A DNA stretch of 64,000 nt from contig JBAZBL010000003.1 in the NCBI GenBank assembly GCA_041671485.1, positions 25,412 through 89,411 on the forward strand, written 5' to 3'. Positions 2,202-64,000 of this stretch are shown here, in pieces. This stretch comes from Minisyncoccota bacterium. Its GTDB lineage: Bacteria > Patescibacteriota > Minisyncoccia > Phycocordibacterales > PALSA-1337. Position 1 is the first letter of the stretch; the number at the start of each line of letters is the position of its first letter. The translations under genes were made by a program, and so were the position numbers. The notes beneath the pieces are model-generated. The model did no database searches. It had not been told where the DNA came from and was given only the letters and a program-made list of their open reading frames with translations.

Positions 2202-3449
2202 ATGGATAAACCAATTATAGAAGTAAAAAATATAGGCAAGAAATATAATATCACTCATATGAAGGGTGGATATATTGCATTGCGTGATGTAATAGCAAGT
2301 GCACTCAGAAATCCTTTTTCATTTATCAAGAACAAAGCCAAACAAGCTGTTGGCTTGACGAAGAAAGAAGAATTCTGGGCTCTAAAAGATGTTTCCTTCA
2401 CTGTGAAGAGAGGAGAGATCGTTGGTGTGATTGGCGCAAATGGAGCTGGAAAATCGACTCTCCTAAAAGTATTATCACAAATAACTCCACCAACAGAGGG
2501 TGAAGTTATGTTACATGGTCGTGTCGGTTCCCTACTCGAAGTTGGTACTGGTTTTCATCCAGAATTGACTGGCCGAGAGAATATATTCCTGAATGGAGCA
2601 ATTCTTGGCATGAAGAAAGGTGAGATTGCCTCCAAGTTTGATCAAATCGTAGAATTCGCAGGAATTGAGAAATTCCTCGACACACCGGTCAAATATTATT
2701 CGAGTGGTATGTATGTTCGTCTAGCTTTCTCCGTAGCAGCACATATGGAACCAGACATTCTACTCATAGATGAAGTCTTGGCAGTTGGCGATGCAGAATT
2801 CCAGAAGAAGTGTTTGGGTAAGATGAATGAGATCACAAAGAATGAAGGAAGGACGATTTTGTTCGTGAGCCACAATTTAGAAGCTATCCGTAATTTGTGT
2901 CCAACAACTATACTCCTAGAAGGTGGAAAGATTAATTTTAAAGGTTCCACAAATGAAGTTATCAAGAAATATAATAGCGTAACAAAAGATAATTTTGATT
3001 TTTCTAAAAATTTCAACAGACGAGGAAATGGATTGATCAAATTAACAGGATTCGATATCGTCGATGAAAATAATAAATCTGTTGAATTAATAAATACTGG
3101 AATGAAAATCTCATTTAATTTTTTCTATAGATGCGAGAATCCTGATAGCATATCAAATGTAGATGTTGGTTTCTCAATCTGTAAACAAGATGGAATGTTG
3201 CTTGGAACAAGATATAGCTCATATACCGGAGAAAAGTTAAATGTCAAAACAGAAGGTTGTTTCAAATATTCTATAGACAACCTACCTTTGGATCCAGGCA
3301 CATATGGCATTAATGCTAGAATACTTGCTAATGGTTCTGAGTCTGATTGGCCCAAAGAGCCGATTAAGTATTTGACATTGACTAGTAAAGAAAACGAAAG
3401 AACATACCCCGATTCGATCGTTTGTATTAGTGGAAAATGGTCTACATAA
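2202..3449 (+). CDS. wzt: ABC transporter ATP-binding protein Wzt/TagH-like with a C-terminal extension (possible glycan-binding domain)
   Basis: Walker A GANGAGKST, signature YSSGMYVRLAF and Walker B LLIDEVLAVGD are present. About 180 extra C-terminal residues follow the NBD. Start placed at the ATG at 2202 (MDKPIIEVKN), not at the ORF-track extension. Confidence 0.8.
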   Translation: MDKPIIEVKNIGKKYNITHMKGGYIALRDVIASALRNPFSFIKNKAKQAVGLTKKEEFWALKDVSFTVKRGEIVGVIGANGAGKSTLLKVLSQITPPTEGEVMLHGRVGSLLEVGTGFHPELTGRENIFLNGAILGMKKGEIASKFDQIVEFAGIEKFLDTPVKYYSSGMYVRLAFSVAAHMEPDILLIDEVLAVGDAEFQKKCLGKMNEITKNEGRTILFVSHNLEAIRNLCPTTILLEGGKINFKGSTNEVIKKYNSVTKDNFDFSKNFNRRGNGLIKLTGFDIVDENNKSVELINTGMKISFNFFYRCENPDSISNVDVGFSICKQDGMLLGTRYSSYTGEKLNVKTEGCFKYSIDNLPLDPGTYGINARILANGSESDWPKEPIKYLTLTSKENERTYPDSIVCISGKWST

Positions 3450-3470
3450 AAGATTTAAATTATTTACAAG

Positions 3471-4181
3471 ATGATAAAACAAATGATTTCTCACTTGATA
3501 CCATCGCGCTTACTTGAAAGAATAATGTTTTTAAAATTCAAGTATGCCACAGTCTCTTTTTCCCAACATGGCGAAGATACTATTCTACGAGATCTTCTTT
3601 GGAAGACAAAAAAGGGATTCTATGTGGATATTGGAGCGCACCATCCAACAAGATTCTCCAATACATATTGGTTCTATCGCAACGGTTGGAAAGGTATCAA
3701 TATAGATGCTTCACCTGGATCTATGAAGAATTTTAGAACTATTAGACCAAATGATATTAATATAGAGATAGGTATATCTGAAAAGCCAAATGTGATGAAC
3801 TTTTTTCGATTCAATAAGCCGGCTTTCAATACTTTCTCGATACAATTGGCAAATAAATACAAAGAACAAGGATTCAAATTATTAGATACGGTCAAAGTCA
3901 ACACTGATACTTTGGAAAATATATTAGATAAGAATTTTCCTTTGGGACAGACTATTGATTTTATGAGTATTGATGCCGAGGGATATGATCTAGAAGTATT
4001 AAAGTCCAACGACTGGTCTAGATTTATACCCAAAATCATAGTAATAGAGGACAATAATTTTTCAGTCGAGAATCCATATAATTCACCGATAGCCAACTTT
4101 CTAAAAGAAAAGAGTTACAAAATAATTACGTATACGGGACATACTCTTTTTTTATTAAACAATAATAATTATATTTCATGA
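3471..4181 (+). CDS. FkbM-family SAM-dependent methyltransferase
   Basis: FSQHGEDTILRDLL and DIGAHHPT motifs characteristic of the FkbM methyltransferase domain. Confidence 0.7.
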   Translation: MIKQMISHLIPSRLLERIMFLKFKYATVSFSQHGEDTILRDLLWKTKKGFYVDIGAHHPTRFSNTYWFYRNGWKGINIDASPGSMKNFRTIRPNDINIEIGISEKPNVMNFFRFNKPAFNTFSIQLANKYKEQGFKLLDTVKVNTDTLENILDKNFPLGQTIDFMSIDAEGYDLEVLKSNDWSRFIPKIIVIEDNNFSVENPYNSPIANFLKEKSYKIITYTGHTLFLLNNNNYIS

Positions 4182-5878
4182 AAACCCCAATTCTCTTTAT
4201 AACATTCAATAGACCTGAACAAACTGAACGTGTTTTCGCAGAAATCCGTAAAATACAACCCGAAAAACTTTTCATTGCTGCGGATGGACCTAGAGATAAC
4301 AGGCCTGAAGATGTAGAGAAGTGTGCAAAAACAAGAAAGATAATAGAGAAGGTTGATTGGCCTTGTGATCTGAAAACTTTGTTTCAGGATAAAAACCTTG
4401 GCTGTAAGATCGGAGCAACTACTGCTATTGGTTGGTTTTTTGATCATGTTGAAGAAGGGATAATCCTAGAAGATGATTGCATTCCCGATAAGTCTTTTTT
4501 CCCTTTTTGTGCAGAAATGCTCAACTATTTTAGAAATAAAGAGAAGATTATAATGATTTGCGGATATAATATCAACGAGAAATCAAATATCCCATATTCA
4601 TATACTTTTTCACGATATGGACATCTTTGGGGTTGGGCATCATGGAGACGAGTATGGAAACAGTATGATGTAACAATGAAGATTTGGGAAAGCAAAGAAA
4701 ATCAGAGAAAGATAAAGAAGGCCATGGGTGATCGCCAGCATTGGAATTATCGGCAATGGCTTTACAACGAAACGTATCATGGAAGAAAAGATACTTGGGA
4801 TTATCAATGGGAATCATACCGATTACTTCACAATCAATTATCAATCATTCCTGCAACCAATATGATAGAAAATATTGGTTTTGGAGCTGATGCAACACAT
4901 ACAAAACAAACAAATTCCCATTTGCTAATAAAAAGAAGGGCGATCACTTTTCCGATTGTTCACAATTCAAATATTATTGCTGATGACAATTATGACAAAT
5001 TATTGAGACCACCAAATAAAGCACCTAGCATGTGGATACGAAACATTAAAGAAATGATCAAGACAAATGCCAAAGACATTGTTCCACCACTTCTATACAG
5101 GACAATAAGACAGATACTTTTACGTCAAATAAAATTTAGACCTAGATGGAATACACTACAATACAAATCGATGGAAGGAGTACAAATGTATTTTGACCCA
5201 TCTGGATCGTGGCAAAAAAAGATGCTCGATGGTTCATATGACAAATTCCTCTTCGATAGACTTCGTGATATTGGTGCAAGTAACAAAGTTATCTATGATA
5301 TTGGTGCTCATGTCGGATATCACTCACTGTATTTTGCTCGAATGGTCGGTGAAGGTGGAAAAATCTTTGCCTTCGAACCAAATAATAATAATCTTGATCG
5401 AATAAAATTAAATCTTGACCATAATAAAGATCTGGAAAAAAGAATTAAGATTTTTAACATTGCTATTTCAGATGAGTATGGAAATGCAGAGTTTAATATC
5501 AACAATGATATTGAAAGTGGTAGAAGTTCTGGAAACTTTATTGGTGGGGCTCATCCTTTCTGGAGCCGAGATGTTTACAAGATAAAGGGGTTTATCAAAA
5601 CACGAGTGAAGACAATTCCGATTGACATGTTTAGAGAACATCTCGATATAAATAGTTCTCCAGATATTATCAAACTCGATGTTGAGGGAGCAGAATATCT
5701 AGCACTCAAAGGTGCGAAGAATACCTTGCTATCGAAGAGACCAATAATATTTATAGAAATTCATTCAATGCAGAGTATGTTCGAAGTTATTACATTTCTT
5801 ACATCATTATCATATAGCTCAAGAATTATTCATGTTGAAGATAATGGTGTTTGCTACATAGAAGCACAAAAATTATGA
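4178..5878 (+). CDS. Two-domain protein: N-terminal GT-A-like glycosyltransferase region fused to a C-terminal FkbM-family methyltransferase
   Basis: N-terminus ILFITFNRPEQTERV, typical of a nucleotide-sugar transferase. The C-terminal 230 aa has the FkbM pattern (YDIGAHVGYHSLYFA ... KLDVEGAEYLAL). It overlaps the upstream gene by 4 nt (ATGA). Confidence 0.6.
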   Translation: MKTPILFITFNRPEQTERVFAEIRKIQPEKLFIAADGPRDNRPEDVEKCAKTRKIIEKVDWPCDLKTLFQDKNLGCKIGATTAIGWFFDHVEEGIILEDDCIPDKSFFPFCAEMLNYFRNKEKIIMICGYNINEKSNIPYSYTFSRYGHLWGWASWRRVWKQYDVTMKIWESKENQRKIKKAMGDRQHWNYRQWLYNETYHGRKDTWDYQWESYRLLHNQLSIIPATNMIENIGFGADATHTKQTNSHLLIKRRAITFPIVHNSNIIADDNYDKLLRPPNKAPSMWIRNIKEMIKTNAKDIVPPLLYRTIRQILLRQIKFRPRWNTLQYKSMEGVQMYFDPSGSWQKKMLDGSYDKFLFDRLRDIGASNKVIYDIGAHVGYHSLYFARMVGEGGKIFAFEPNNNNLDRIKLNLDHNKDLEKRIKIFNIAISDEYGNAEFNINNDIESGRSSGNFIGGAHPFWSRDVYKIKGFIKTRVKTIPIDMFREHLDINSSPDIIKLDVEGAEYLALKGAKNTLLSKRPIIFIEIHSMQSMFEVITFLTSLSYSSRIIHVEDNGVCYIEAQKL

Positions 5879-39201: not shown

Positions 39202-39358
39202 CAAAAAAGCCCAACGAAATATACTCTCGAGCTGACACGCAATGCAATGTGAGCCATGAACAAATTGCCCATATTTGCTGAATCCTTGTAAGCAAATATG
39301 GTTGCAATTTGGAATGGCGACCTTGCGTGGAGGCGAGAGAGATATTTCGTCGGGCTTT
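39202..39358. repeat. Family B structured palindromic repeat, copy A (bidirectional terminator-like)
   Basis: Roughly 155-nt rod: an outer 25-bp stem flanked by T-runs on both strands and an inner long hairpin (cccatatttgct/agcaaatatgg). About 90 percent identical to 57180-57335, with compensatory substitutions in the stems. Confidence 0.6.
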
Positions 39359-39367
39359 TAATATAAA

Positions 39368-43010: not shown

Positions 43011-44894
43011 TTATATCCTTCGTCTTTTATTGATTTCTGCTTTACGGATCGAAAGGGCCTGACATTTCTTTGCCAATTCTGCAACAGATTTTGTATTATG
43101 ACGAGCTTCGGCAATTTTCAATTCTTGCATAGTATCTATCAATTCTATATTGATGAGATCCTCTTCAAAATTGATCAATAATTCTTTTGCATTTTTTTCC
43201 CATAAATCTTCATCATTGCCAAAGAATGCTTCAGCCTCAAATACTAGATCACTCGCTATACTATCTGCTCTAGCTTTACGTATGTCATAAGATTTCTGAT
43301 CAAGTCTCTTCAATTCTTCTATAAATGTATCTACCTTTTTTGACTTCTCTTTTTTCATGAGATACAAAAGTCCAAATAGACGTCTTTCTATAAGATCAAT
43401 GCGTTTGGATTGTTCATCGCTGGTCTTGGTAACAATTTTATCATCGGTTTTATTTTCTTGCTTCAAACGCTTTTCTATAACTTTCAAATCTTGCCATATT
43501 GTATCTATTGGAGTCTTTGAATGATCGGCAATCATCTGTACAAAATGTGATTGATCACTAGCACTTTCTATCCTTGCAAGTAATGGTAATACACGCTCTT
43601 CTATTGCTCGGATAAGTTTGCGTTTATCTTGAAATTCACGTAAAACATTGTTTATCTCAAATTCAATAACTGGTTTTGCATTGCGCAATACTTCTTTCCA
43701 CTTGTTTGTATCTTCTCTTGCAAGATCGGCAGGATCTTTGCCTCCGACAATATCAGCAATCTTTACATCCATGCCGAGCGATAAAGCAATACCTGATGCT
43801 CTCATAGCTGCTTTTCGTCCTGCAGGATCGGAGTCAAATGCAATAATTATATTTGGTGATAGGCGTCTCACCAAGCCGAGATTACTCACAACTCCATCAC
43901 TTTTATAAACTTCATCTCCTAGAGCAGTTCCTGAAGATGCAACTGTATTACAAATCCCTGCTTGATGTGACATGACTAGGTCCATTTGACCTTCGACAAA
44001 TATAGAATAATTGAGTCTTCTTATCTCACTTTTTGCTTTGTCCAAGCCATACAAGACTGCGGATTTATCGAATAGTGGTGTATCTGGACTATTCAGATAT
44101 TTTGCAGATTGGCCATCATCTTTGAGTATTCGTCCGGAGAATGCAATCACCCGACCACTAGAGTCATTTATTGGAAACATTATTCGTCCACGAAATCGGT
44201 CGTAAAACCCACTGTCATTCCCGCGAAAGCGGGAATCCATATTTACATGAGCAGGATCCGCCGCTCCCTCCTCGGGGCGACTAAATGCCTTCGTTCGCTT
44301 CGCGAAGTCGCCATTTGTCGCCCCTGCGACGGTCGCGGCTCCTATCCCACTTGATTCTTTCCTCTTCACAAGACCCACTTTTTCGAGGATGGCATCATTG
44401 TAACCTTTACCCTTCATATAAATAGAAAGATTGCGCCAACCATCTGGAGCAAAACCTATTCGAAATAGTTTTCGAGTTTCTTCTTTTATTCCACGACATT
44501 TCAAGTATTCCCTTGCTTCTTTGGATCTTTCGAATTGAAATTCAAAATACTTTGTTGCTTCTTCTATGAGAGCGTATAGATGATCTCTTTCACCATCAGA
44601 TTTTTGATCATGAACAATAGGTACGCCAGCCTTTTCTGCAAGAAGCTTCAATGCCCCACGAAAGTCCAGTCCTTCAAACTGTTCAACAAATGAGAATATA
44701 TCTCCTTTGGCACCACAGCCAAAACAATAATAACCACCTCTTTCCGGAGAGACGAAAAAAGAAGGAGTCTTTTCATTGTGAAATGGACACTTTGCTTTCA
44801 ATGATTTGCCTGCTCTTTCTAGTTTTATATAAGAACCAAGAACATCTTCTATTGAAAGTCGAGCTTTGATTTCTTCTACGGTAGAACGATTCAT
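43011..44894 (-). CDS. dnaG: DNA primase DnaG, carrying a roughly 45-aa GC-rich in-frame insertion
   Basis: CHC2 zinc finger CPFHNEKTPSFFVSPERGGYYCFGCGAKGD and TOPRIM motifs. Extra segment lies between KRKESSG and FYDRFRGRIMFPI. Confidence 0.85.
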   Translation of the reverse strand: MNRSTVEEIKARLSIEDVLGSYIKLERAGKSLKAKCPFHNEKTPSFFVSPERGGYYCFGCGAKGDIFSFVEQFEGLDFRGALKLLAEKAGVPIVHDQKSDGERDHLYALIEEATKYFEFQFERSKEAREYLKCRGIKEETRKLFRIGFAPDGWRNLSIYMKGKGYNDAILEKVGLVKRKESSGIGAATVAGATNGDFAKRTKAFSRPEEGAADPAHVNMDSRFRGNDSGFYDRFRGRIMFPINDSSGRVIAFSGRILKDDGQSAKYLNSPDTPLFDKSAVLYGLDKAKSEIRRLNYSIFVEGQMDLVMSHQAGICNTVASSGTALGDEVYKSDGVVSNLGLVRRLSPNIIIAFDSDPAGRKAAMRASGIALSLGMDVKIADIVGGKDPADLAREDTNKWKEVLRNAKPVIEFEINNVLREFQDKRKLIRAIEERVLPLLARIESASDQSHFVQMIADHSKTPIDTIWQDLKVIEKRLKQENKTDDKIVTKTSDEQSKRIDLIERRLFGLLYLMKKEKSKKVDTFIEELKRLDQKSYDIRKARADSIASDLVFEAEAFFGNDEDLWEKNAKELLINFEEDLINIELIDTMQELKIAEARHNTKSVAELAKKCQALSIRKAEINKRRRI

Positions 44895-53960: not shown

Positions 53961-54992
53961 TTAAAATGACCGCAGATATTCCTCAAGCAATCGGTCATAT
54001 ATTGGTTGCAATATGCACTGATAATTATAGGCATTACCATGCTTTAACATACCCAAATAAGACGAGACTGTTTCGAACTTTGGCTCGTTATTGCATTTAT
54101 TCATCATTCTTCTTCTGGTAGTTGTCCTTAACACCCGATGATCTGGAAAGTGTATCCAGCCCAAAAAGTCAACGCCCGAAGCAAAAGTCTTGAGAAATGT
54201 TTTGTCGGGATGTAATGACAAATGGAGTTTTTCTTTCAAAAATTGGTCCATATCTGTAAGCATAGATAAAAGTAATTTGTGATCAGTGTTAAGGATTACA
54301 AAATCATCGGCATAACGAATATAGTATTTGACTTTGATTTTATGCTTCATGAATTGATCGAATTTATTCATGTAAATATTCGCGAATAATTGAGAAGTTA
54401 AATTTCCTAGTGGCATACCAACATTTGGGTCACCCGAATGAAAACTGTTTATTATTTGATCTAACAGATGAAGAATGTCCCGGTCGGGAATATAGGAATT
54501 GAGTATGTCAAATAATATTTGATGATCTATTGAAGCAAAGAACTTTCTAATATCACATTTCAAAACCCAAACAGTTTTTGTATGATTGCACGATGCTTGT
54601 CTGGCAAACTCGCTAAATTTTTTGAAGGCTCTATGTGTACCTTTGTCGATCCTACAAGAATATGAATCAGAGATGAAAGTTCGGTCAAAGAATGGGTATA
54701 GTTTCCTGTAAAGTGCTCGATGTAAAATTCGATCTCTTACAGTAGCTTTATGGATATTACGAGGTTTGGGATCATTGATTTTGAAGGGCATATATGGACC
54801 ATGTACAAATGTTCTATTTTTCAAATCTTTGTGGAGTTGTAATAGGTGTCTCATTAACTGTAATCGAAATTCAGCTACATCTTCCCTTCTGTCTTTGTCG
54901 GCTGAAAATTCATTCCACGCCTCTAGTAAATTCTCAATGGATATGATAGCTTCGTAGTTATGGCTGAATTGAATTCGTCCCATATTTCTCAT
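53961..54992 (-). CDS. Diversity-generating retroelement (DGR) reverse transcriptase
   Basis: 343 aa; RT motifs including PLGNLTSQLFANIYM (the DGR-type I/LGxxxSQ motif rather than the group II QGxxxSP) and YIRYADDFVIL (YADD). Lies directly downstream of the TR on the same strand. Confidence 0.85.
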   Translation of the reverse strand: MRNMGRIQFSHNYEAIISIENLLEAWNEFSADKDRREDVAEFRLQLMRHLLQLHKDLKNRTFVHGPYMPFKINDPKPRNIHKATVRDRILHRALYRKLYPFFDRTFISDSYSCRIDKGTHRAFKKFSEFARQASCNHTKTVWVLKCDIRKFFASIDHQILFDILNSYIPDRDILHLLDQIINSFHSGDPNVGMPLGNLTSQLFANIYMNKFDQFMKHKIKVKYYIRYADDFVILNTDHKLLLSMLTDMDQFLKEKLHLSLHPDKTFLKTFASGVDFLGWIHFPDHRVLRTTTRRRMMNKCNNEPKFETVSSYLGMLKHGNAYNYQCILQPIYDRLLEEYLRSF

Positions 54993-55017: not shown

Positions 55018-55404
55018 GTTGTCGAAAAGCTTAAATCAAGCTACAAACTTTGGCATGAATATCACGGACTCGTACCGAAAACACAAAGATATTCGCTTGG
55101 CAATAGAATAGATAATCTCTTAGTAGAAAGCATCGAAGCGACAGTAACTGCGACATTTTTATCAAAAGAAGAGAAATTACCGTGGATACGACTGGCAATT
55201 CGAAAAACCGATACATTGAAAGTTTTACTCATGATTTTATGGGAAACTAAATCAATAGATGATAAAAAATATATTGCTCTTTCTGTGAAATTAGATGAGG
55301 TCGGCAAGATGCTCGGTGGTTGGAGTGGACAGCTTATAAAATCTACCTCTACTAAAACTATAGTGAATAAACAAAACTCTCCAGCAAAAGCAGGAGAGAA
55401 ATGA
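55018..55404 (+). CDS. Avd-like four-helix-bundle protein (accessory variability determinant family) on the opposite strand to the RT; no canonical start codon as sequenced
   Basis: Frame open from 54973 to the TGA at 55402-55404. Translation ...KLKSSYKLWHEYHGLVPKTQRYSLGNRIDNLLVESIEATVTATFLSKEEKLPWIRLAIRKTDTLKVLLMILWETKSIDDKKYIALSVKLDEVGKMLGGWSGQLIK matches the 23S-rRNA-IVS/Avd four-helix-bundle pattern. An ATG at 54960 is one frame off, across a C8 tract. Confidence 0.45.
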   Translation, partial: VVEKLKSSYKLWHEYHGLVPKTQRYSLGNRIDNLLVESIEATVTATFLSKEEKLPWIRLAIRKTDTLKVLLMILWETKSIDDKKYIALSVKLDEVGKMLGGWSGQLIKSTSTKTIVNKQNSPAKAGEK

Positions 55405-55412
55405 AGAGAGTC

Positions 55413-55534
55413 GCCGACACCGCCGCAGGGTTGTTGTCTTTGAAGTCGTTGTCAAGCCAGTTGTAGTTCCAGTCCCACCTGCCGCCGTTCCAGTTGAGGT
55501 AACGAACATAGAGGTTGTCATCGGCGCTGCGGTA
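55413..55534 (-). repeat. DGR template repeat (TR)
   Basis: 122 nt aligning gap-free with 55861-55982. All 17 differences are at TR adenines (sense = - strand). The TR sense strand is rich in AAC codons. Confidence 0.85.
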
Positions 55535-55778
55535 TCGTATGAAGCACCATCCATACCACCACCCCTCGGATACCCTCAGGGCTGAATCGTATTTGGCATC
55601 GTAATGCCTTAGCACCTCATACCAAGTATTTTCATTTTTTAATGAAGTTCTGCATACACCACTCTACCCAAAATCTTGGTCGTGGATATTCTCGATGTAT
55701 GGATACTGGTTTCGGTAGCAAGCAACATTAGTCGCTCACATATTCACCTACTCCCGCCACATCTTACCATATAAATCA

Positions 55779-55853: not shown

Positions 55854-56474
55854 CTAACTTGCCGACACCGCCGCAGGGTCGAGGCCCCTGAAGTCGTTGT
55901 CAAGCCAGCGGCAGTTCCAGCCCCACCTGCCGCCGCCCCAGCGGAGGCAACGAACATAGAGGTCGTCATCGGCGCCGCGGTAGATGGTCCCCCAGAAGAA
56001 GATGTAGCGGGTGTTTCCGTTTTCATCCTTTTTCCATGCCTCGGGAATGAGGTGCGGGTTCTTCAGGAGATAATCCAAAACATTGGCGTTGAGGACTCGT
56101 TGCTTGGCGAGTTCCTTGCGCAGGTCATTGCCACGGATGGCATTGCCTTTCTTCTGGAGCTTGGACAACCAAAACTCGATTTTCTTGCCATCGAGATAGA
56201 GGTCGTCTCCACGGCATTCGAGCTTGGCAACCTTGCCACTCTGGTGTTCTTCCACCTTCCAGCCGTCAGGAAGGTAGGGGTCGGCACCGAGGTCAATGGC
56301 GTGTTCGATAGGCTTGATTTCATACAAACCCAGTTGGACACCCCTCACACGACCGAGGAAATCCCCGACAGTGAGCGCTTTGACTTCTTCCAGCGATTGG
56401 AAGCCGTTGCGGTTGAGCGCATGCTCGATTTCTTGAGCCAAACCAACACCGAGCGTTAACTTTATATTATCCAT
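55854..56474 (-). CDS. DGR target (variable) protein, 206 aa, with C-terminal VR
   Basis: Intact ORF whose last 40 codons or so are the VR. GC content is far above the genomic background. No obvious signal peptide. Confidence 0.8.
   Translation of the reverse strand: MDNIKLTLGVGLAQEIEHALNRNGFQSLEEVKALTVGDFLGRVRGVQLGLYEIKPIEHAIDLGADPYLPDGWKVEEHQSGKVAKLECRGDDLYLDGKKIEFWLSKLQKKGNAIRGNDLRKELAKQRVLNANVLDYLLKNPHLIPEAWKKDENGNTRYIFFWGTIYRGADDDLYVRCLRWGGGRWGWNCRWLDNDFRGLDPAAVSAS
55861..55982 (-). repeat. DGR variable repeat (VR) at the 3' end of the target gene
   Basis: Cognate of the TR. Encodes YRGADDDLYVRCLRWGGGRWGWNCRWLDNDFRGLDPAAVSA, against TR-encoded YRSADDNLYVRYLNWNGGRWDWNYNWLDNDFKDNNPAAVSA. 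Confidence 0.85.
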
Positions 56475-57179: not shown

Positions 57180-57335
57180 TAAAAAGCTTGGTGAAATATC
57201 TCTCGAGCCAACACGCAATGCGATCTGAGCCATGAACAAATTGCCCGTATTTGCCGAATCCTTGTAGGCAAATACGGTGCAATTTGGAATGGCGACCTTG
57301 CGTGGAGGCGAGGGAGATATTTCACCAAGCTTTTT
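57180..57335. repeat. Family B structured palindromic repeat, copy B (bidirectional terminator-like)
   Basis: Homologous to 39202-39358 with covarying stems (gcttggtgaaatat/atatttcaccaagc versus gcccaacgaaatat/atatttcgtcgggc; ccgtatttgcc/ggcaaatacgg versus cccatatttgct/agcaaatatgg). T-runs on both strands. Confidence 0.6.
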
Positions 57336-61068: not shown

Positions 61069-63255
61069 ATGAACATCTCCCTCTCCGATGCCGTGGTAGA
61101 ACACTTCCGCCTTACTCCCATACAAAAGCTGGCCCTAAAGAAGCTTGGCATAACAAGTATCCGTGATCTCTTGTATCATTTCCCTTCTCGATACGGCGAC
61201 ACAGCAGAGACTTGTAATATTGATTCACTAGACAAGGGTGATACTGCTGTTGTATATGGCAAGATCACAGGGCTCAAAACTAGCAAGGGCTTCAAATCCA
61301 AAATCCCGATGGCAGACGGTTACGTACAGGATGAAACAGGTAAGATACATTGCGTATGGTTCAATCAGCCATATCTAGCAAAAACAATACAAGAAGGTTC
61401 TATGGTTAGGATTGAAGGCAGAGTCAGTCAGAGACAAAAGACCAATGAACTCTATTTCTCAAATCCGAAAGTAGAAATGGTTACAAAGTTGCCAATAGGA
61501 GTTGGCGATTCCCTATTTAGTGGATCTACAGATGACAGCGAATCACATACACTGTATCCAGTATATCCAGAGTCTCGTGGCATCACTTCGATCTGGATAT
61601 ATCACAATATACAAAAGATATTTAGGAGTGGTTTATTGGATACGATATCAGAATGCATTCCAGAAGATATACTAGAAAAATACCATTTACCTCAAGTAAA
61701 AACTGCACTTATATGGATACATACCCCGATGAAGCGTGACGATGCTCTATCTGCACGCAAACGATTTTCTTTCGAAGAAATATTCTTGATACAGATAGGA
61801 AAATATCAAGAAAGAAAGAAATATGAAAGTCTTCCATCATTTACTATTGAAGAAAATCCAAGAAGTGTACAAGAATTTATCCGCCGCTTCCCATTCCATG
61901 CAACAGAAGCACAAGAGAAGAGTATAGATACTATCCTAAATGATATGAAAAGGGGCATTGCTATGTCACGACTCTTAGAAGGAGATGTTGGCTCCGGCAA
62001 AACCGCCGTGGCAGCAACATCTGCTTATTCAGTCATTACATCCAGAGATGAAACAGGCAAAAACAATTATTTCCAAGTAGCATATATGTGCCCAACAGAA
62101 ATATTGGCAATGCAACATTTCGAATCATTCATACAATATTTCTCATATCTAGGTGTACAAGTAGGACTTTTGACATCCTCTGGTTGTCGCAAATTCCCAT
62201 CGAAAGTCAATCCAAAGGGCTGGACAGATATTTCACGATCCCAACTTTTGAAATGGGTGGAGGGAGGTGAAATACCAATAGTCATAGGCACACACTCTCT
62301 CATACAAAAGTCTGTTCAATTCAAGAAACTTGCTTTTGTTATTATAGATGAACAACATCGTTTTGGTACATCACAGAGAGCACAATTGGTTAGGAAAAAT
62401 GGACATAGTTCTGTTGCACCACACCTTCTGTCTATGACAGCTACACCTATTCCACGCACATTAGCACTCACCATGTATGGCGACCTCGATCTCACTCTAC
62501 TCGATCAATCTCCATCTGGTCGCAAGCCGATAATAACAGAGATTGTCTTGCCAAATCATCGTGATCAAGTATATGAAAAAGTTCGTCAAGAATTGAAGAC
62601 TGGGCGACAAGTATATGTTATTTGTCCTAGGATAGATGAGCCAGATCCAGACAAAGAATTGGCATTGAATGCAAGATCAGTCAAAGCCGAAGCAAAAAGG
62701 TTGAAAGATGATGTATTCCAAGAATATGAAATAGGTATTTTGCATAGTAGGATGAAACCAAAAGAAAAAGATATGGTAATGAATCAATTCAAAAATGGAG
62801 ATATAAATATACTCTGTGCTACTTCGGTCGTAGAAGTGGGTGTCAATGTACCAAATGCAACAGTGATAATCATAGAAGGCGCAGAAAGATTTGGTCTAGC
62901 ACAACTCCATCAATTGCGTGGACGAGTCATGAGAAGTACCTATCAACCATATTGCTATGCATTCACAGAATCAAATGGAGCAAAATCAATAGAGCGTCTC
63001 AAGGCTCTCCAAAACGCAAAGAATGGCTTTGAATTAGCAGAACTCGATCTAGTCCAGCGTGGTACTGGTGGTTTGTCTGGCAATAAACAATGGGGTGTAT
63101 CTGATGTCGCTATGGAAGCCCTGAAGAATCTGAAAATGGTCGAAGCCGCGCGCAATGAAGCACAAAGATTGGTAGACCTAGACTCTACTCTCACTAACTA
63201 CCCTGTCTTGAAACAAGAAGTAGATAATAAGAAAAAGAATTTGCATTTTGAATAA
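61069..63255 (+). CDS. recG: ATP-dependent DNA helicase RecG
   Basis: Wedge/OB N-terminal domain, Walker A GDVGSGKT, DEQHRFG, TATPIPRTLAL and the C-terminal helicase motifs (HGRMK-like ILHSRMKPKEK). Confidence 0.85.
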   Translation: MNISLSDAVVEHFRLTPIQKLALKKLGITSIRDLLYHFPSRYGDTAETCNIDSLDKGDTAVVYGKITGLKTSKGFKSKIPMADGYVQDETGKIHCVWFNQPYLAKTIQEGSMVRIEGRVSQRQKTNELYFSNPKVEMVTKLPIGVGDSLFSGSTDDSESHTLYPVYPESRGITSIWIYHNIQKIFRSGLLDTISECIPEDILEKYHLPQVKTALIWIHTPMKRDDALSARKRFSFEEIFLIQIGKYQERKKYESLPSFTIEENPRSVQEFIRRFPFHATEAQEKSIDTILNDMKRGIAMSRLLEGDVGSGKTAVAATSAYSVITSRDETGKNNYFQVAYMCPTEILAMQHFESFIQYFSYLGVQVGLLTSSGCRKFPSKVNPKGWTDISRSQLLKWVEGGEIPIVIGTHSLIQKSVQFKKLAFVIIDEQHRFGTSQRAQLVRKNGHSSVAPHLLSMTATPIPRTLALTMYGDLDLTLLDQSPSGRKPIITEIVLPNHRDQVYEKVRQELKTGRQVYVICPRIDEPDPDKELALNARSVKAEAKRLKDDVFQEYEIGILHSRMKPKEKDMVMNQFKNGDINILCATSVVEVGVNVPNATVIIIEGAERFGLAQLHQLRGRVMRSTYQPYCYAFTESNGAKSIERLKALQNAKNGFELAELDLVQRGTGGLSGNKQWGVSDVAMEALKNLKMVEAARNEAQRLVDLDSTLTNYPVLKQEVDNKKKNLHFE

Positions 63256-63370
63256 TATCTCATTTACAACATAATCATACAAAACAAACAATCACCAAAT
63301 CCAAATTCATCCGAACATCAAAGCACAATGTTTCAAAGCGCAAGAATATCAATGATTCAAGGTGCAATAA

Positions 63371-64000
63371 TCAAATCTCGAGGAGCACAACACGACAGCT
63401 CGAGTCCCACTCATCGTCGAGCCAACCCGCACCGCGGAGCCACCCAGCCCCATTCCACCCCGCATAAGGCAAATACCAGCTGCCATCCGAGAGGCGAACA
63501 AGAGAGCCGAAGTTGAAGTACCAGTTTCCGTCTTTTAGTTGATCTGGGACTTTGTCAGGGTTTTCTAACATGAATTTCCAGTATTCTATGCCTGGTATTT
63601 TGTATTTGTCGGAGTATTTCTCAATCAAACGGTTGGCAACATCCTGAACTGTACTACAATCTTCAAATTCCTTGGGATCTGGTATGAATATCTTGTCCTT
63701 GAGTGCTTCCCAGTCTAGGCCTTGTGTGTCAGGATTTAGGGTGAATTGACCAAATTTGTCTGGATCTATGTCTGCTTTTCTTTCTGAATAGTCTTCGTCC
63801 TTTGGATTCTTGATTTCTACAGATATTTGAGTGTCTTTGATCTTTTCTTCGTCTACACCCCATATCTTCCATGTTTCCTTGAGGAAAGAGGTAAAAGAGC
63901 CATATATGTGTTCTGCTTGTTCTACTGTGACTTCTTGATTGCCAAGCTTGATCTTTGTACCTTTTAGGGACTCTCTTAGTTTGGTGATGCTTTCAGTTGT
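63371..64000 (-). CDS. Hypothetical acidic protein, partial (N-terminus beyond the window end) with a GC-rich Trp/Gly-rich C-terminus resembling a DGR VR-type segment
   Basis: Open - strand frame from the window edge to the stop at 63371. C-terminus ...SDGSWYLPYAGWNGAGWLRGAGWLDDEWDSSCRVVLLEI. Local GC spike at about 63380-63500. Confidence 0.5.
   Translation of the reverse strand, partial: TTESITKLRESLKGTKIKLGNQEVTVEQAEHIYGSFTSFLKETWKIWGVDEEKIKDTQISVEIKNPKDEDYSERKADIDPDKFGQFTLNPDTQGLDWEALKDKIFIPDPKEFEDCSTVQDVANRLIEKYSDKYKIPGIEYWKFMLENPDKVPDQLKDGNWYFNFGSLVRLSDGSWYLPYAGWNGAGWLRGAGWLDDEWDSSCRVVLLEI

Follow-up and report, generated by a model that had tools for sequence, protein, structure and literature searches.

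The DNA analysed here is a stretch of 64,000 nucleotides (the window), the right edge of which is occupied by the 3′ part of a minus-strand gene (63371–64000), comprising 209 codons and a stop codon, that runs off the window at position 64000. The minus-strand translation of 63368–64000 is a single open frame with the end ...SWYLPYAGWNGAGWLRGAGWLDDEWDSSCRVVLLEI*, and the stop codon of this edge gene lies at 63371–63373. The full protein, P0001 (MFA6974644.1, WC237_01625), is 260 aa long and is encoded on a 95,112-nt contig of a Candidatus Paceibacterota MAG. Searches of P0001 against Pfam and PHROG returned no family match, nor was there a match by sequence among solved structures. A 115-nt spacer (63256–63370) separates the stop codon of the edge gene from the convergent recG gene (61069–63255, plus strand; 728 aa).

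The 45 codons that precede the stop (63374–63508, minus strand) encode GSLVRLSDGSWYLPYAGWNGAGWLRGAGWLDDEWDSSCRVVLLEI, in which hypervariable codons are interleaved with a conserved scaffold, GS.R..G.W.P.A.W.G..W.R.A.WL...W....RVVLLE. An earlier, sequence-only reading of this DNA had described the end of the gene as a GC-rich, Trp/Gly-rich segment resembling a VR, and this description was borne out. Five Trp and seven Gly residues occur among the 45, and the GC content in 60-nt windows reaches 0.57–0.68 vs about 0.3–0.45 in the flanks, the edge gene and the genome around the spike having a GC content of about 0.36–0.40. When all 120-nt windows across the 64 kb were ranked, 63377–63496 (GC 0.642, z = 4.6) came second, the highest value belonging to 55861–55980 (z = 5.7), the VR of the window’s own DGR. 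The segment closes with an invariant stretch encoding RVVLLEI (CGTGTTGTGCTCCTCGAGATT; 63374–63394, minus strand), which we infer to be the position equivalent to the IMH because the TR/VR homology of relatives stops there.

The DGR of the window reads, in minus-strand order, 206-aa target, TR, Avd (opposite strand) and RT. The target gene (P0150; 55854–56474, minus strand) contains its VR at about 55860–55982, and the TR (55412–55546, minus strand) differs from this VR by 17 adenine mismatches and one other; the TR/VR pair is also apparent as a 122-nt direct repeat (55413–55534 and 55861–55982) with 86% identity. The Avd accessory gene (55021–55404, plus strand; PF22296 bAvd-like, 44.5 bits with a cutoff of 40) abuts the TR on the strand opposite to the reverse transcriptase gene (53961–54992, minus strand; RVT_1, E = 1.2e-23), the product of which belongs to a very abundant Patescibacteria RT lineage according to a homologue search with more than 8000 matches. 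An RT and an Avd are present 7.4 kb from the edge VR, but they are paired with a different TR. The VR of this DGR and the entire 206-aa target showed 100% identity across two NCBI MAGs, an ENA assembly and a Logan contig; consensus-level VR variation across these four assemblies is nil for a DGR that is apparently intact. Apart from short Logan contigs, look-ups of recG and the 206-aa target returned an ENA contig that stops at 63950, and each of these sequences matched the window with 100% identity.

To judge from profile alignment, the likeness of the edge VR to the TR and VR of this DGR is real homology and not chance. The profile of the edge gene’s family aligned with the 206-aa target over 61 columns (hhalign; 96.3% probability, E = 1.6e-9, 31% identity), and a family TR peptide matched the window’s TR by tblastn (E = 1.9e-6). 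The pattern that the sequence-only reading had seen in both proteins, WNG...W...WLD(N/D)D, is shared because their C-terminal ~61 columns are homologous, and the two scaffolds are of equal length; at 31% identity, however, the edge gene is no close paralog of the 206-aa target. The N-terminal two-thirds of the two proteins are unlike, the 206-aa target ends in PAAVSAS vs RVVLLEI in the edge gene, and the former has a matching TR whereas the edge VR has none in the 64-kb window. These sequences assign the two genes to different target families with different 3′ ends.

The claim that the edge segment is not templated by the window’s TR was also upheld, as was the remark on many non-adenine differences. 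A gap-free alignment of TR and edge VR in their common codon register gave mismatches at 70 of 132 bases, distributed across all four TR bases (A 20/32, C 28/40, G 12/34, T 10/26), while a TR scan of the segment counted mismatches at 23 adenines and at 49 other bases. No relationship is seen between the 3′ ends (CGTGTTGTGCTCCTCGAG vs CCTGCGGCGGTGTCGGC). It could be argued that the edge VR is nonetheless a divergent yet usable target of the TR at 55412–55546, since a complete cassette is present on the same strand 7.4 kb downstream of it, a layout like that of the remote targets in three related loci (L012, L062 and L075), and since its fold is homologous and its scaffold of equal length. However, 49 non-adenine mismatches in 132 nt, together with unrelated 3′ ends that leave no homology to prime or resolve homing, reduce the likelihood of this to practically nil, and the alignment refutes it.

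The search for a second TR that the sequence-only reading had proposed covered the 64-kb window. Within it, an adenine-tolerant scan of both strands found no second template, the best non-self match having 36 non-adenine mismatches over 140 nt, and tblastn of the window with VR/TR peptides gave no second TR either. Beside the edge gene itself, the 115-nt spacer has no room for a TR, which in relatives sits 310–430 nt downstream of the VR, and recG occupies the site of the relatives’ TR-Avd-RT cassette.

P0001 has 25 homologues at an E-value of 1e-10 or better. A block just upstream of the VR (IPGIEYWKFxLENPDKVP...LKDGN.YY.FGS) is strongly conserved among them, and in their last ~45 residues an invariant scaffold alternates with hypervariable positions. 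A profile of the C-terminal 132 residues retrieved 591 representatives (50% clustering) from 1.84 billion proteins, with the domain always C-terminal. One set of family members, 745–806 aa long in the profile search and 745–862 aa over all fusions noted, combines the variable domain with an AAA_5/MoxR ATPase in one protein. The closest relatives have a separate MoxR gene (637 aa) that stops 4 nt ahead of the family gene, and a MoxR gene directly precedes the 86–90% identical copy in L110–L112. Since the hypervariable domain is fused to this ATPase or follows it directly, these arrangements suggest that it is the ligand-sensing module of the ATPase. A MoxR homologue search gave no WC237-tagged entry among the few entries shown with names. 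MoxR-fused or MoxR-adjoining variable domains were also observed downstream of ftsH (L028/L110 at 2905–4818, L111 and L112; P0164, P0151 and P0155).

The combination of a CLec domain and an AAA ATPase is the commonest CPR DGR target in the findings of Paul et al. (2017), as summarised by Doré et al. (2024, PMC10907252). By sequence relationship, the edge gene is a further member of this already described AAA-ATPase/CLec-type target family. It shares the C-terminal ~132-aa domain, and 21 loci of the family have the TR-Avd-RT cassette after the VR; it differs in being a short stand-alone form (260 aa) that lacks an ATPase domain of its own, and in having no cognate TR beside it. The AlphaFold model of the variable domain has a pLDDT of 94.8, and the best Foldseek matches are C-type lectin domains, none of them significant (E = 0.44, TM 0.36), so the predicted structure is consistent with a CLec fold without demonstrating it. 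The prototype Mtd of Bordetella phage BPP-1 offers several parallels, namely a C-terminal VR, a correspondence of variable codons to adenine-rich (AAY) template codons, an invariant GC-rich 3′ end and a cassette with RT and Avd. Unlike in that phage system, the host of the edge gene is a cellular organism (CPR), the edge VR has no perfect hairpin of 6 bp or more within 100 nt, and the edge domain gave no detectable sequence match or significant fold match to Mtd or other solved structures.

For comparison, 105 related loci were collected and every VR-like or TR-like segment in them was located. Removal of duplicates left 93 distinct VRs, 62 of which had at least 700 nt of downstream sequence. 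An Asn-rich TR was found 310–430 nt downstream in 21 of these 62; three were remote, with a matching TR 1.3–6 kb away in their locus, and for 38 the available sequence contained no TR. When the set was restricted to the 27 VRs flanked by 3 kb or more on each side, the TR was adjacent for 12, remote for two and absent for 13. The TR/VR pairs of the family differ by 9–24 adenine mismatches and 0–4 others, and the cassette order (VR, TR, Avd on the opposite strand, RT) is that seen in the window. On the strength of these pairs, the edge gene belongs to a family of genuine DGR targets. Its Avds are 30–46% and its RTs 50–59% identical to those of the window. The idea that the window’s cassette is a retargeted descendant of the family’s cassette gained no specific support, since unrelated Patescibacteria RTs, at 61–68%, are more similar to the window’s RT than the family-linked ones.

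Several VRs of the family that lack a TR nevertheless vary in the manner expected of DGR targets. Between L002 and L017, the closest relatives of the edge gene and both TR-less, VR mismatches fall 11/10/0 at codon positions 1/2/3, with a single mismatch in the 90 nt upstream. Corresponding counts are 6/7/1 for L006 and 9/8/3 for L046, neither of which has a TR within 2–10 kb (the limits of the loci), and 6/13/1 and 8/10/0 for the TR-linked controls L012 and L062. The near-identical strains L041 and L045 share 98% identity upstream vs 90% in the VR, and VR-only differences also occur in L081/L018. In L002 and L017, a 9-bp hairpin begins 6 nt past the stop codon; the edge locus lacks it (an 18-nt gap in the alignment), and no perfect hairpin of at least 6 bp was found within 100 nt of the edge VR. 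The window’s own VR has no perfect stem of at least 6 bp downstream either. A perfect stem of at least 7 bp follows 22 of 39 TR-linked VRs, and as a marker of active vs inactive VRs the downstream hairpin was discarded owing to poor separation (56% vs 31%).

Signs of cassette decay were encountered in the same set of loci. In L014 (10602–10796), an RT fragment corresponding to residues 270–335 only directly follows the VR, and L046 (5061–5627) has an RT fragment and no TR. In the decayed cassettes of L003 (10258–10536) and L031 (11609–11887), TR and Avd are intact but the RT is detectable at residues 230–322 only. L032 equals L033 minus 6.4 kb between two paralogous target genes, with TR, Avd and RT included in the missing segment; its sequence is compatible with either a natural recombination deletion that orphaned a VR or an assembly collapse. 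In L005, by comparison with L033, the downstream locus carries the VR sequence of the upstream copy.

The contigs of all six 3′-truncated relatives (L025, L028, L043, L066, L076 and L093) break off within the VR or where it begins (residues 220–245), as expected if VR heterogeneity breaks metagenome assemblies, although the search patterns bias which truncations are detectable and the excess of VR-located ends is only moderately significant. L028, which carries the sister MAG’s 86–90% identical copy, stops precisely at base 1 of its first hypervariable codon. This break was considered as a sign of population polymorphism, but it is ambiguous, since near-identical paralogs in one organism would break an assembly there too.

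The edge VR itself bears the marks of adenine-directed change. When it was compared with heterologous TRs of the family, 67% of TR adenines differed vs 20% of other bases in the best case (L012; Fisher p = 5e-6). Moreover, identity across the closest clade at codon positions 1/2/3 is 0.74/0.75/0.64 in the VR vs 0.71/0.83/0.53 in the 50 codons upstream, an inverted pattern. The most informative comparison is with a family paralog on the same contig, P0295 (WC237_01635, MFA6974646.1; 259 aa), which a cluster look-up placed two locus tags from the edge gene. Its VR, GSLVRLSAGRWCLPCARWRGAGWDRNAGWLGGAWDSDYRVVLLEI, has a private scaffold in common with the edge VR, with LP in place of the family’s VP and GAGW in place of GSxW. 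The two VRs differ at 13 of 45 residues, all of them at adenine-coded positions (a comparison at the protein level only). Eight of the 13 fall on the 10 positions with Asn codons in 30% or more of family TRs (p = 2e-4), the remaining five lie at Asp, Tyr or Glu codons, which contain adenine, and all 13 are explicable, given the edge codons, by changes at codon positions 1–2. P0001 and P0295 are about 98% identical once the VR and two mosaic stretches (residues 30–40 and 158–180) are set aside. Because the private scaffold is shared and the differences are confined to adenine-coded positions, these sequences are most simply read as the products of two independent writing events from a single template outside the window, here called TR2.

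The edge VR is identical in the ENA assembly and in the sister MAG (P0146; MFA6404749.1, WCW03), the protein copy of the latter having six N-terminal differences. This identity between MAGs is weak evidence, since the VR of the window’s own DGR is also invariant in every assembly found. The excess of third-position GC in the edge VR over the upstream sequence, +0.20, corresponds to the 15th percentile among TR-linked VRs (+0.31 ± 0.10) and to the middle of the range of TR-less VRs (+0.21 ± 0.14; p = 0.0014 between the two groups). As to the mosaic stretches, P0146 carries the residues of P0295 at 30–40, and P0001 and P0295 show a block difference at 158–180 (window about 63615–63680; PKEFEDCSTVQDVANRLIEKY vs LSHLNGKTLQEVAQYLITNY). 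The pattern among the three proteins suggests gene conversion between tandem paralogs or chimeric assembly.

We therefore consider it highly probable (about 0.85–0.9) that the edge VR is a DGR-written VR of the CPR family, and that its template was other than the TR of the window. The edge VR forms the C-terminal ~45 residues of a compact domain that is C-type-lectin-like according to the literature. In the proposed mechanism, an RT would copy the transcript of TR2 while misincorporating opposite adenines (mutagenic retrohoming), and the cDNA would replace the VR up to its invariant RVVLLE-coding 3′ end. TR2, which would encode roughly GSLVR(L/N)SNGNWNLPYANWNGAGWNRNAGWLNNNWDSNYRVVLL, would also have written the VR of WC237_01635. 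It would lie beyond position 64000 or on another contig, the edge gene being a remote target of a second template, and it may possess an RT of its own or be served in trans by the RT of the window. Of the alternatives that the sequence-only reading had listed, a second DGR or template elsewhere is the likelier, a formerly diversified, now orphaned VR is less likely, and the third, a fixed segment that was never diversified, is disfavoured by the TR-templated relatives and by a paralog differing only at adenine-coded positions.

We lean, with modest confidence, towards the joint statement that the edge VR is a genuine DGR VR written from TR2 and that TR2 survives outside the window. One argument for a living TR2 is that the diversification appears recent relative to the divergence of the paralogs; this follows from the contrast between about 98% identity outside the VR and mosaic stretches and 13 differences at about 16 variable codons, unless gene conversion homogenises the rest of the genes. 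Remote and TR-less but still varying targets are, furthermore, frequent in the family, and multiple DGR loci per CPR genome have been documented (PMC10907252). With 120 of more than 8000 RT homologue matches listed, no WC237-tagged second RT was present among the matches listed. One specific version, in which TR2 is located immediately past the window, in the interval that separates the edge gene from its paralog, accompanied by WC237_01630 only (e.g., an Avd) and by no RT of its own, strikes us as rather improbable. Were it true, the window’s RT would serve two unrelated templates with three targets in two protein families, and a minimal CPR genome would hold a satellite template locus without an RT.

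The opposite outcome for TR2 is that it wrote both VRs and was then lost together with its Avd and RT, leaving two frozen specificities that change by ordinary mutation only. Much of the local evidence is compatible with such a history: no matching TR was found in the 64 kb, with recG and a 115-nt spacer at its usual position; the edge VR is identical in two MAGs despite a differing N-terminus; its third-position GC excess is of the size usual in TR-less VRs and small by the standard of TR-linked ones; and the post-VR hairpin of L002/L017 is deleted at the edge locus. The family also offers precedents, in the RT fragments that alone remain in L014 and L046, the truncated RT of L003/L031, the loss of a cassette by recombination or assembly collapse between paralogs in L032 vs L033, and the 38 of 62 distinct VRs without a TR in reach. 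Against this history stand paralogs that have diverged in their VRs and hardly elsewhere (unless gene conversion keeps the rest alike), a scaffold, RVVLLE end and high GC that are all intact, and the strain-level, VR-only variation that persists at TR-less loci elsewhere, and we regard loss of TR2 as possible but on balance doubtful. That the edge gene is instead a fixed homologue, sharing fold and motif while its C-terminus was never rewritten by a DGR, would accord with the lack of an observed cognate TR in the 64 kb and with the lack of variation between two MAGs. Yet the gene is nested among TR-templated relatives at 58–65% identity (L003/L031 and L033), its divergence from family TRs is concentrated at adenines, its differences from the paralog are restricted to adenine-coded positions on a shared private scaffold, and its codon-position identity is inverted in the VR relative to upstream. 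A history without any rewriting is accordingly very improbable.

Remote or trans DGR targets, incomplete DGR loci and several DGR loci per CPR genome are already known (PMC10907252; PMC8144416). The closest parallel to the arrangement proposed for TR2 is Thiohalocapsa PB-PSB1 (Doré et al., 2024, PMC10907252), in which a VR likewise lies apart from any matching TR, several paralogous targets depend on one template, and a complete DGR with a different TR is nearby. The difference is that in PB-PSB1 the matching TRs were located in a closed genome and diversification was measured from reads, whereas the TR2 of the edge VR is deduced from two VRs. If TR2 is found, the locus will provide a compact natural example of one small genome with two templates acting on two target families. 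For annotation, the edge gene should be labelled as a DGR-type variable protein, which standard DGR finders will miss because they require a TR/VR pair. Several TR-less VRs of the family retain a pure adenine-site signature between paralogs or strains. With 38 of 62 VRs out of reach of a TR and several of these showing the adenine signature, surveys restricted to RT-adjacent targets underestimate the DGR-diversified repertoire of CPR, a limitation acknowledged by Roux et al. (2021, PMC8144416).

Two further features of the window were observed. The third most GC-rich 120-nt stretch (44220–44339, GC 0.625) lies within a DnaG-primase-like ORF (43011–44894, minus strand) and encodes an apparent insertion, ...GIGAATVAGATNGDFAKRTKAFSRPEEGAADPAHVNMDSRFRGNDSGFYDRFRG...; it was not VR-like by tblastn and looks like a GC-rich inserted element that is translated in frame. 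In addition, an element of ~155 nt is present in two copies with 90% identity (39205–39359 and 57182–57334), each of which forms one long, nearly perfect hairpin with 56 predicted pairs. No Rfam family was matched at the gathering threshold. The second copy, within which a Logan contig breaks, has the pyruvate kinase gene on one side and rpsP on the other and lies some 700 nt upstream of the gene for the DGR target. At six pairs the two copies differ by compensatory double changes, e.g., CCCAACG/CGTCGGG vs CTTGGTG/CACCAAG in the terminal stem, and the element could be MITE-like or a structured RNA.
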